A stretch of DNA of 58,530 nt, filler included, from Malassezia furfur (taxonomy: Eukaryota): NCBI GenBank assembly GCA_052055015.1. It is 2 parts of 2 records of this genome, joined end to end, with 100 filler letters (N's around TTAATTAATTAA, not from the genome) between each part and the next. Parts side by side here need not be neighbours in the genome. Positions count along the whole stretch, not along the records: positions 1 to 29,230 come from JBQJIT010000106.1; 1 more part is not named here. One strand, given 5' to 3'. A program made the translations under genes and the position numbers. Under the pieces are notes generated by a model. The model had not been told where the DNA came from. It searched no databases and saw nothing but the letters and a program-made list of their open reading frames with translations. The stretch's first letter is position 1, and each line of letters starts with the position of its first letter. Positions 737-29,330 of the stretch are shown in pieces.

Positions 737-2913
737 CTACACCGTCGCGACTATTTCCGAGGCGCTCTCGAGCGCCGCAATCATCTTGACACACTCGCGG
801 CGGCGCGCGATGACGTGGTCAGACTCCTTCATGAGATCCTTGAGTACCTCGGGCTGGTACAGCTCCTGGAGCAGCTCGCGCTGCATCGAGTCCTTGGCGT
901 GGCTCACGAGGTTGAGCATGATCGCCTTAGGGATCATGTCGATCACCGTCCGCTTCGTAATGTTGAAGTAGGACGTAATCAGCAGCTTAATCACGTCCGT
1001 CTCCATCGCCTCGCGGTCGGTGAGCGTGCCCGAAGCCTTCAGACTCGGCGGCGGCGCCTCCATCGCGCCCTTTTTCGCGGCCGTGCGGTTCTTGTTCGGG
1101 AAGAAGGAGCCAAAGAAGCCGCCCGACTCCTTGATGTCCACGTCGAGGTCCTTGTTGTTGTTTGCCAGACCCGGCGGGATGGGGCGTCCACTGCGGTACT
1201 CGGGCGTGGGCGCGGCATTGTTCTGCGACGCATTCAAACGCTCGCTCACGATCGCCAGCGCCTTGTGGCCCGACAAAAAGTCGGGGTGGCCCGTGTTCAA
1301 GTAGCACGCCTCGGATGCAATTATGTCGCTCACGAGCTTGGTCGTCGGCGCCATGCACCGCTTGAAGAACTGGATTACCACCAGGTTGAAGCGCTCACGT
1401 AGCGCAGGGAAGCGACGGAACGCGGCATTCTTCGAGAGCAGCTGCGACAAAATGCGCACCAGTTCATCGTACACCAGCGAGCAGCACTTGATGCTCGGGT
1501 CCTCAAGGCGCTTGATCTGTTGCTTGACAATCACCTCGAATGCCGTCGTCCCCACGAAGAGCGCCGGCGACGAGCCGGACGAGTTGTAGAGGATCGTGCG
1601 GATGTCGGCGTCCTTGACGTTGTCAAACGGATCGATCGCCTTGACACCGTTGCTGAACAGCTCGTGGAATACGAAGCTGATACGTGCACCGCCTGCCAGC
1701 TCGTTCACGCTCAGGTCATTGCTGTTCCCATCGATCACCGTGCGGAACTCGTTGCAGAAGTCGGTGATGATCGACAGCACAGCACCAGCGCTGTTCTGCT
1801 CACCGTGCGATCCGCCGAGCGCCTGCAGCTCCATCTGGAACTTGGAGAGCTGCGTCTGGATCTTGGTCTTGATGTCCGGCAGCGTGCTCCGGATGTGGTG
1901 CATCAGGATCGTGTTGAGTTTCCGCGCCAAGAAGGGCGTACCGCAATAGGCCGCCTTGCTCTGGTAGCTGGGGTGGCTCTCGAAGAAGTTGCGCTCGGCC
2001 TCGAGCGCATCCGCAACGCGCTTCCTGTTGTCAATGTCGCGCTGGCCACGGTTCACCACAGGAACGTAGCCCAGACGCAGCGGAATGACACGGCCAGCCA
2101 GGATGTCGACCACGTCGGTGCCCGCATCCATCAGGTCCACCTTGGTCAGCACACCAACCGTGCGCGTGCCATCGGGGTCAACCTCAGCAGCGAGCTTCAG
2201 ACCGTCCGAATTGGCCAAGTCGGTGTTGGCCGCCGTCACGGCGAGGATCACCGCATTGGGCTTGGCGATGAACTTGTACACCATATCGCGGATCTGGCGC
2301 TCGATGTCGCGCGGCTGGTCGCCCACCGGGTTTTTGGTCAGACCAGGCAGGTCCACCAGCGTAAGGGTCAGCACGTGGGGGCTGTAGATGCGCAAGTTGA
2401 TCGGTGCCGAGCTGATCCCTGCGTTCTTGCCCGTCTTGGCCTCGGTGTCGCGCACAATCTCCTCGCGGATCTTGTCAAAGTCGTAGAACTTTTCGCCGGG
2501 CAGGTGAAGAAACTCGCCCCATTCGTTGGGGTTCGTCGCATTGTCACCACGCGGCTCGATCTCACCATTGTCCGGCACGCGGTGGATGAGCTGCAACACG
2601 AGCGGACGACGCGTCACAATGCCAGTGCCACGCGGCAGGAAGTCCCGCCCAACAATGTTCTCCAGCACACTGCTTTTACCCGACGACTGGCTGCCAAGCA
2701 CCGTGATCTGCGGCAGATCAATGGGGTTTTGGATGCCGACCTGGCGTGAGTGGCGGTTTGGTACGTACGTTGGTGAACGCATCTTGTAGCTGTGCGGTGA
2801 GTGGGGGTGCAACGTACCTTGTTAACAAGCTCTGTTCAGGCCCACAGGGACCATGTGTTAGTACCGCACTCGCCACGCGTCCATCAGTACGCACTAATCA
2901 ATGACTGGTCCAT
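737..2913 (-). CDS. VPS1: Dynamin-like GTPase Vps1; exons 2913-2895, 2831-2818, 2789-2769, 2740-737
   Basis: [13 protein letters not shown] and TKVD motifs plus middle and GED domains. Splicing three GT-AG introns (63, 28, 28 nt) gives the conserved start [30 protein letters not shown]. Confidence 0.96.
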
Positions 2914-3058
2914 CGCGACAATACACGCTCCGCAACGTCTCGATGGCGGAGTAGGGCCACGTTGCGCACTAGAAGGCGCGGCCTCGGACCGCCGACCCCA
3001 GCGTGTATGGGAATGATGCGACTGCATATATCCGCAACCCTAGGACCCTCCCCACAGC

Positions 3059-4125
3059 ATGACCTCCACCTTGGTTGATGTAGGTCGCCGCCGCACTGAC
3101 GCAGGGTACGGTGCTCGGCTCACCGCAGCACATTGTCATCCCACCGAGGAACTGCGGCATGGAAAAGAATGGGAGGAGTGGATTGACGAAGTAAGGCGCG
3201 TCGACCTGCACCAGATCTGCGTCATGTCCACGGATATGGTGGACCAACCCCGCGTTGCGGAATTGGCGCGCACGGTGGACGACGGCAAGGTTGTGCCTTG
3301 CTTTGGTAGGTGATGCGCTTACCCAAAGGATACCACCCATGGGCAGCGCATACCATCTCGCTCGAGAAGACGCCAAATTCCCGCGCCCACTATGCTCGCC
3401 TGTTTGGCGAGGCCCAGGACGAAGAGACAGCCGCGCTGTACGACTCCCTGCCCGCGCCAACGCCGCTCTCGGATGCCCTTGAACAGCTGCGTATGCATCT
3501 CGAAGCCTTCCCCCATGCCCTCGTGGGGGAGGTCGGGCTTGACCGCAGTTTTCGGCTCCCAGACCCGCGCGTCGGTGGACGCCAACTCACGCGACTCCAG
3601 ACGCCCATCGACCACCAGCTCGCGGTGCTGCGGCCTCAGGTGCAGCTGGCGTGTGTGCTGGGGCGCAGTGTCAGCATGCACAGTGTTCGGGCAGCTGGCC
3701 AAACGACGGCATTCCTGGACGAGATGCGTAAGGAGAAAGGATTTGCCAGCATTGGTACGTCGGTGCCCTGACGCCAGGTCTCGTGCTGCACAGCTGCACA
3801 CTGAGCCCTGAAAGTATCCGTGGTGTGCAACAGACGCACCCCAACGTGTACATTTCATTTTCTACGTGCGTGCCTATCCTGACACAGAACCATCAACCAT
3901 CGTCAAAAGAACCTCGACGCGCAAATCGCGGCGTGTGATCTGGACCGTGTCTTGAGTGAGTCCGACCAGAACTGCTGTGCCGAGTTGGCGCGAAGTGTGA
4001 ACGATGTCGTTGCGCTGATGGCGCGAGTACGGGGAGAAGATCCCGCCGCGTTGGGCGTTCGGCTGACCGAAAACTTCCGTGTGTTTCGAAGAGACAAGCA
4101 CGCATCTAAGGACCAGGCACTATAA
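3059..4125 (+). CDS. TatD-family metallo-hydrolase/DNase (Scn1-like); predicted introns 3080-3104, 3106-3128, 3306-3328, 3755-3777, 3866-3887
   Basis: Spliced product carries TatD motifs LVDAHCHP, CFGYHPW, VGEVGLD, SMHSVRA, LHS, NVYISFS and LSESD. Stop TAA at 4123-4125. Confidence 0.88.
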
Positions 4126-29230: not shown

Positions 29231-29330
29231 NNNNNNNNNNNNNNNNNNNNNNNNNNNNNNNNNNNNNNNNNNNNTTAATTAATTAANNNNNNNNNNNNNN
29301 NNNNNNNNNNNNNNNNNNNNNNNNNNNNNN
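29231..29330. other. Artificial contig-join spacer: N44-TTAATTAATTAA-N44
   Basis: Exactly 100 nt, with a palindromic six-frame stop linker at 29275-29286 centred in Ns. Confidence 0.97.

Follow-up and report, generated by a model that had tools for sequence, protein, structure and literature searches.

Two micro-introns near the 5′ end of a TatD-family gene of Malassezia furfur probably flank an exon of a single nucleotide, a G at position 3105 that completes the alanine codon of the conserved sequence V-D-A-H-C-H. The gene lies on the plus strand at positions 3059-4125 of the stretch of DNA analysed here, which is 58,530 nt long at its full length (filler included) and is referred to below as the window. 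Between the aspartate codon GAT and the sequence CA CAT TGT CAT there are 49 nt, made up of a 25-nt unit that runs from GT to AG, the single G, and a 23-nt unit that again runs from GT to AG; the two units with the G between them are called the twin. This layout had been noted in an earlier reading of the sequence made without database searches (the sequence-only reading), and it proved right base for base. That reading had also proposed that the G is an exon which builds the DAHCH motif. The proposal is the only canonical solution for the 49 nt, and comparison with other sequences now lends it backing from an accepted intron of M. sympodialis, from the twin layout and the intron-like variation seen, through protein sequences, in relatives, and from the near-invariance of the aspartate.

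Identity and organization of the gene

The gene encodes a hydrolase of the TatD/Scn1 family, is interrupted by five introns and ends with TAA. Exon 4 alone matches the Pfam profile TatD_DNase (PF01026) with 28.8 bits against a cut-off of 27, and the same profile is matched less strongly, at 15.5 and 13.1 bits, by the exons towards the two termini (N and C), in the correct profile order. All 78 homologues found in a protein database search carry PF01026, the best named relatives being the 'Cut9-interacting protein Scn1' of Malassezia species (51-58% identity). With the family profile, a structure search reached human TATDN3 (2y1h) and YcfH-type structures; a PDB search with the single M. sympodialis sequence P0012 gave no match, the matches having come with the profile. 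The GEVGLD, SMHS, LHSC and ESD motifs are invariant or near-invariant columns of the alignment, and all of them are present in the spliced model. From what is known of the amidohydrolase fold, we take the downstream Glu, His, His and Asp of these motifs to be metal ligands.

Exon 1 (3059-3079), delimited by the sequence and by ORF calling, runs from ATG to GAT and encodes MTSTLVD. Its ATG (3059-3061) is the first past the in-frame stop of an ORF at 3044..3313, and GAT (3077-3079) is codon 7, for Asp7. It is followed by intron I1 (3080-3104, 25 nt), recognized by the intron pattern, with the 5′ site GTAGGT, the branch motif CTGAC and a terminal CAG; by the proposed one-nucleotide exon (3105), which in the splice models is base 1 of an Ala codon G+CA; and by intron I2 (3106-3128, 23 nt), also recognized by its pattern, with GTACGG, CTCAC and CAG. 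Exon 3 (3129-3305) begins CA CAT TGT CAT and encodes HCHPTEEL..PCFG, as judged from the sequence, Pfam and the splice models. The other introns of the gene had been put at 22-23 nt, and this is what was found. Intron 3 (3306-3328, 23 nt; GTAGGT, CTTAC, AAG) leaves a junction PCFG|YHPW that is collinear with the intronless relative P0003, intron 4 (3755-3777, 23 nt; GTACGT, CTGAC, CAG) is placed by the intron pattern and the splice models, and intron 5 (3866-3887, 22 nt; GTGCGT, CTGAC, CAG) has the same position as a 24-nt intron of M. sympodialis. Of the exons that they separate, exon 4 (3329-3754), which carries the GEVGLD and SMHSV motifs, is supported by Pfam TatD_DNase and the alignment, exon 5 (3778-3865), with the LHSC motif, by the splice models, and exon 6 (3888-4125), which extends to the stop codon, by ORF calling and the splice models.

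Splice models of the 5′ end

Six splice models were built from the coordinates. When both units are taken out, LVDAHCHPT is restored in a predicted protein of 316 aa, as the sequence-only reading had supposed; with introns 3-5 also removed, this protein begins MTSTLVDAHCHP, and its N-terminal region is predicted to contain LVDAHCHPTEELR. The N-terminal D-x-H-x-H that belongs at the start of the profile is present, as VDAHCH, in the twin-spliced product only, and the unspliced ORF enters the TatD_DNase profile at Ala24, at profile position 3. Removal of unit 1 alone leads to a stop at codon 37, removal of unit 2 alone to one at codon 35 and removal of all 49 nt to one at codon 29, in keeping with the earlier claim that each of these events shifts the frame. 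Two further claims hold as well: the unspliced form stays in frame with 16 additional aa, ORF 3044..3313 being stop-free, and there is no canonical single intron of 48 nt, whose ends, read from the sequence, would be TA..AG or GT..CA. An alternative 5′ site at 3084, spliced to 3128 with 45 nt removed, keeps the frame and gives 317 aa with VDVAHCH. In sum, a canonical AG and a canonical GT are separated by one base, each flanking unit is complete in itself, and G3105 is required both for the frame and for the sequence that is conserved in comparison with intronless orthologues.

An xxHxH sequence is found near the N-terminus in 44 of the 78 homologues, and it reads D[AS]H[CA]H in 41 of these 44; the other 34 have no xxHxH in their first 220 residues, and many of them begin at an internal Met. 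In this alignment the Asp is near-invariant next to HxH, which is a statement about conservation, and its part in metal binding is putative. Among the three exceptions, P0007 and P0011 come from ORF calling, and their upstream in-frame reading crosses intron-like sequence that ends in ..LTQ ahead of AHCHP. The read-through of P0011 matches an intron in the DNA of a metagenomic locus, L003, and the closest annotated relative of P0007, P0006 of M. nana, has the Asp. The third exception, P0005 (Malassezia sp. CBS 17886, WFD31496.1, residues 12-33), has a 14-aa in-frame insert between LVD and AHCHP. This insert stands at the site of the twin and fits no twin in the back-translation test described below, which counts against the one-base exon; reasoned from the protein alone, it fits no single canonical in-frame intron either. 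The annotated orthologues of M. pachydermatis, M. cuniculi and M. equina (P0004, P0009 and P0015) start at an internal MSTD and are without HxH. Most likely, their small 5′ exons are unmodelled.

Introns of the window and chance expectation

To place I1 and I2 among the introns of the same DNA, 26 plausible introns of the window were retained from a loose pattern. Three of them, in this gene, are validated by collinearity, and two, in a neighbouring dynamin gene, were read by eye; the remainder were judged on their signals and on open frames to either side. The 26 introns are 22-42 nt long, with 12-30 nt from the 5′ site to the branch motif, which is CTGAC, CTTAC, CTCAC or CTAAC. Between the branch A and the 3′ end the distance is 5-9 nt, and in all 26 the first AG past the branch is the one used. 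The 5′ sites are GTACGT (17), GTAGGT (3), GTATGT (3), GTGCGT (1), GTATGC (1) and GTACGG (1). Both I1 and I2 fall within these ranges, a fit that is partly circular because the set was picked with the same loose pattern; a 49-nt intron falls outside them, with 39 nt from its 5′ site to its branch motif. The GTACGG of I2 is a minority form, found once among the 26, and counts against the twin.

An arrangement of one loose intron, 1 nt and a second intron occurs once in the window, at 3080-3128. First-order Markov simulations of the window produced such twins at a mean of 0.023 per window, 5 of 300 runs containing one or more, and a search of the rest of the window for twins whose gap is 0-5 nt found none. 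Two further measures were considered and set aside. The raw count of intron patterns (45, versus 39.6 in the Markov simulations) was dropped as an argument because it is barely enriched, and an ORF score from codon usage was dropped as too noisy in sequence of 64% GC.

The neighbouring dynamin/Vps1-like gene (2741-2913, minus strand) appears by eye to begin with very small exons of its own. Its ATG is at 2913-2911, and its first intron, of 63 nt (2894-2832), contains TACTAAC. The two exons that come next measure 14 nt (2831-2818) and 21 nt (2789-2769), and each is followed by an intron of 28 nt. The translation of these small exons presumably resembles the N-terminus of yeast Vps1. Two runs of N, of 44 each, stand in the window at 29231-29274 and 29287-29330.

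None, one or two introns at one codon

DNA of relatives came from a scan of metagenome contigs, which gave 44 loci, five of them Malassezia-like (L001-L004 and L044) and none from the clade of the window. A scan of genome contigs yielded one bacterial locus, and one of viral contigs no match. In two of the five loci (L001 and L044) the gene of the P0003 type is one uninterrupted ORF of 323 aa, and in a third (L002) a second orthologue is one uninterrupted ORF of 313 aa. Aligned with P0003, the 316-aa twin-spliced product shows no gap at any of its five junctions, and its LVDAHCHPT faces LIDAHCHPT.

The two remaining loci (L003 and L004) have a single intron of 23 nt at the matching codon boundary, GAT|gtacgt..ctgacgcag|GCG CAT. 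When this intron and one of 24 nt are removed from L003, the translation is exactly the annotated 308-aa protein of M. sympodialis (P0012). RNA-seq and proteomics went into the curation of that species' annotation, in which introns average 30 bp and 5271 of the 5350 are supported by RNA-seq (PMC5389616, Table 2). Judged by position, then, I1 is the orthologue of an accepted intron of M. sympodialis, and the two introns end alike, in ..ctgacgcag|G. Relative to M. sympodialis, I2 amounts to 23 extra bases that split the G from the CA of the Ala codon; it is not present in L003 or in the intronless loci L001, L044 and L002. It follows that, if I1 is spliced as in M. sympodialis, I2 must go too, or else the frame is lost. 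As to the gene as a whole, the copy in the window has five introns and that of M. sympodialis two, which share the first and last of the five positions; two other Malassezia-like loci have no intron in it.

The in-frame insert of close relatives

Nine ORF-called sequences have in common a 16-aa insert between LVD and AHCHP: that of the window itself (P0079), seven of the P0080 cluster, and P0081, about 87% identical. The insert is not an assembly error, given that two of the nine occur on 44 and 41 contigs. A more distant sequence, P0092 (60% identity in exon 4), has MTARLVD, a 15-aa insert and AHCHP. A search of a representative library found no further lineage covering exon 1.

The inserts were examined by exhaustive codon choice, asking whether a peptide can encode a unit, a G and a second unit, in windows of 12-20 residues from 107 proteins. 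All ten insert peptides back-translate to a twin at residue 8, of 25+1+23 or 22+1+23 nt, a result at the level of protein, and the same was possible in 3 of 6838 other eligible peptide windows. The Gly-Tyr that spans AG-G-GTAC is invariant in the nine relatives and P0092. This supports conservation of the AG-G-GT arrangement in ten sequences of two lineages, as read from amino acids rather than DNA.

The manner in which the insert varies also supports the view that it evolves like an intron. Variable residues make up 9 of 16 in the insert and 13 of 66 elsewhere (one-sided Fisher p = 0.0055), and each of the nine changes in the insert requires one base change from the codon in the window. Seventeen splice-critical positions had been preset, namely the GT and G5, the branch C, T and A, and the AG of each unit, together with the exon G. 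None of the nine deduced base changes falls on these 17 positions (P about 0.012). Several of them leave a splice signal in an acceptable form: CTGAC becomes CTAAC, CAG becomes TAG in two instances, and GTACGG becomes GTACGT. Intron 3 appears to behave similarly in P0088 and P0089, where manual back-translation gives CTTAC to CTCAC with the AG kept. The sequence upstream of the insert is of a different character: MTSTLVD is identical in all nine close relatives, with P0079 of the window counted, and on these comparisons an invariant exon 1 makes sense only if LVD joins AHCH.

In both twin lineages the insert is in frame and stop-free, over 48 nt in the window (3080-3127) and 45 nt in P0092 (residues 8-22). 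This may reflect a bias in how the sequences were found, or it may mean that read-through is tolerated. In-frame cases are preselected because ORF callers join M..LVD to AHCHP only when the insert is in frame. Other in-frame introns are translated through as well, namely the 24-nt intron of M. sympodialis (L003, 3507-3530) and, as far as back-translation can tell, an apparent 21-nt intron in P0092 near CFG..GFHPW. Since ORF callers read through short in-frame introns, in-frame reading is no evidence of coding in these yeasts. Spliced proteins from transcript assemblies of the window's own species or of its 87% relatives were looked for in the protein database in the length ranges 45-144, 79-254 and 255-2000 aa and none was found; this says little because products with the three undoubted introns removed are equally absent.

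Alternative explanations

Of the other ways in which the 49 nt might be read, the one that fares best is that 48 nt are left unspliced, and that the functional protein keeps the 16-aa insert VGRRRTDAGYGARLTA before AHCH as an exonised former pair of introns. We regard this as unlikely. The open frame in the window, in nine close relatives and in P0092 speaks for it, as does the NCBI annotation of P0005, which reads through a similar insert; however, the in-frame cases were selected by ORF calling, and accepted in-frame introns are read through in the same way. An expressed insert would moreover turn the Asp of 41 of 44 homologues into Ala, would leave the invariant MTSTLVD as a leader without function, and would have to accept radical substitutions (R/W, G/V, D/N and T/I among the changes at 9 of 16 positions) with its splice signals intact.

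It is very improbable that 3080-3128 is a single intron of 49 nt, in which case the upstream frame would be lost and the protein would either start at the internal Met (MSTD..), without HxH, or have a decaying N-terminus. The outer GT..AG pair is canonical, and the annotated orthologues of M. pachydermatis, M. cuniculi and M. equina do start at MSTD, although unmodelled N-terminal exons account more simply for such starts. Against a single intron stand the stop at codon 29, the loss of a conserved exon 1 and of an HCH that is kept in every relative, and the geometry of splicing, in that the 39 nt from 5′ site to branch compare with 12-30 nt in the window and a good branch motif and the first AG would both be skipped.

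Slighter still are the chances of a single 45-nt intron from the second 5′ site at 3084 (GTCGCC) to 3128. Such an intron would be in frame, with a product of 317 aa, yet GTCGCC is not among the 5′ sites of the 26 window introns, and the resulting V-D-V-A-H-C-H has two residues between Asp and His, a spacing seen in 0 of the 41 homologues with the Asp motif. By manual back-translation, the equivalent site in P0092 gives D-V-P-H, and the corresponding hexamer in P0080 differs. Finally, a non-canonical 48-nt intron (TA..AG or GT..CA) would give an identical mRNA without a one-base exon, such that the sequence of the mRNA alone does not discriminate, but it is scarcely credible, with its non-canonical ends, with two complete canonical units ignored and with an internal AG-G-GTAY, conserved by back-translation in ten sequences, that a single long intron would not need.

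Proposed mechanism and origin

Under the one-base exon reading, each unit would be recognized alone by intron definition, through its 5′ site, its branch motif of the form CTNAC and the first AG downstream of the branch, and intron definition together with the first-AG rule would make the twin-spliced mRNA the default product. I1 and I2 would be removed one after the other, in either order; sequential removal is probable because two spliceosomes would hardly fit on 49 nt together. G3105 would stay in the mRNA and join GAT to CA CAT, to give Asp-Ala-His-Cys-His.

How the twin arose is a matter of conjecture. When introns were compared with the M. sympodialis intron, I2 had a similarity score of 12, the top of 28 compared, against 10 for I1 and 9-10 for unrelated introns of the window. 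The likeness of I2 hints that the twin may have arisen by copying of an intron, although the margin is small and too weak to serve as proof. A fuller scenario, which we put forward tentatively and consider doubtful, is that a copy of an intron of about 23 nt was inserted one base downstream of its parent and has persisted in Malassezia lineages that diverged deeply. The pair would then have a length divisible by three and free of stops, such that fully spliced and unspliced mRNAs could both be translated and half-spliced or exon-skipped forms would be destroyed, and splicing would act as a switch on enzyme activity. In the sequence-only reading, too, skipping of the exon was put forward, as a speculative possibility, as an off switch.

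If RNA confirms the twin, this would be a one-base exon between introns of 22-25 nt, which are among the shortest spliceosomal introns known, with 49 nt in all. The case tests how near two splicing events can be to each other, and its history can be read from relatives that have no, one or two introns at the same codon. It also offers an explanation for why gene finders have truncated or misread this gene in several Malassezia genomes, with starts at an internal Met and one read-through.

Comparison with known systems

Two kinds of closely apposed splicing events are natural points of comparison. At recursive splice sites, adjoining 3′ and 5′ sites are used in succession, as would be the case in the window; in Drosophila nothing is retained as very long introns are removed stepwise, whereas in the window one base is retained. 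The twin was rejected as a recursive site on the ground that one G stands between AG and GT and is needed in the mRNA. In fungal stwintrons, two spliceosomal introns in direct contact are removed consecutively, as is proposed for the window, and one of the two is nested within a splice signal (donor, acceptor or branch) of the other. This candidate was also rejected, since 5′ site, branch motif and AG are intact in each of the two units of the window.

The sequence-only reading had called one-nucleotide exons very rarely documented. They are indeed rare, but examples were already known from Arabidopsis, Fusarium and Coprinopsis (PMC4674806, PMC12940212, PMC12230235). For Malassezia, a search of open-access literature turned up no account of micro-exons or of exons of one base.

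In Arabidopsis thaliana, a single-nucleotide exon of APC11 is described on the evidence of cDNA and reporter mutants (Guo and Liu 2015, PMC4674806), in an account that also cites the recursive sites of long Drosophila introns as zero-nucleotide exons. The APC11 exon resembles that of the window in that one nucleotide stands between AG and GT, is needed for the frame and was missed by annotation, and its authors likewise propose intron definition with removal of the introns one after the other (PMC4674806). It differs in that it lies within a stretch first annotated as a 422-nt intron, whereas the whole twin of the window has 49 nt, with introns of 25 and 23 nt.

Among basidiomycetes, a long-read annotation of Coprinopsis cinerea lists 13 one-nucleotide exons in 13 genes (PMC12230235). 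The setting is similar in that very short internal exons, when missed, break gene models; the Coprinopsis exons form a genome-wide list from long reads (PMC12230235).

A third case, and another fungal one, is that of the CYP621A P450 genes of Fusarium, in which SRA reads cross the joint of a one-nucleotide exon (Nelson and Syed 2026, PMC12940212). These genes belong to an ascomycete, with an intron region of 139 nt in F. graminearum, and the gene of the window to a basidiomycete yeast with introns of about 23 nt (PMC12940212). In both, the single base completes a codon of a conserved motif, and the argument for CYP621A was made in the same manner as here, from an alignment of orthologues with an intronless relative as a marker of length (PMC12940212).
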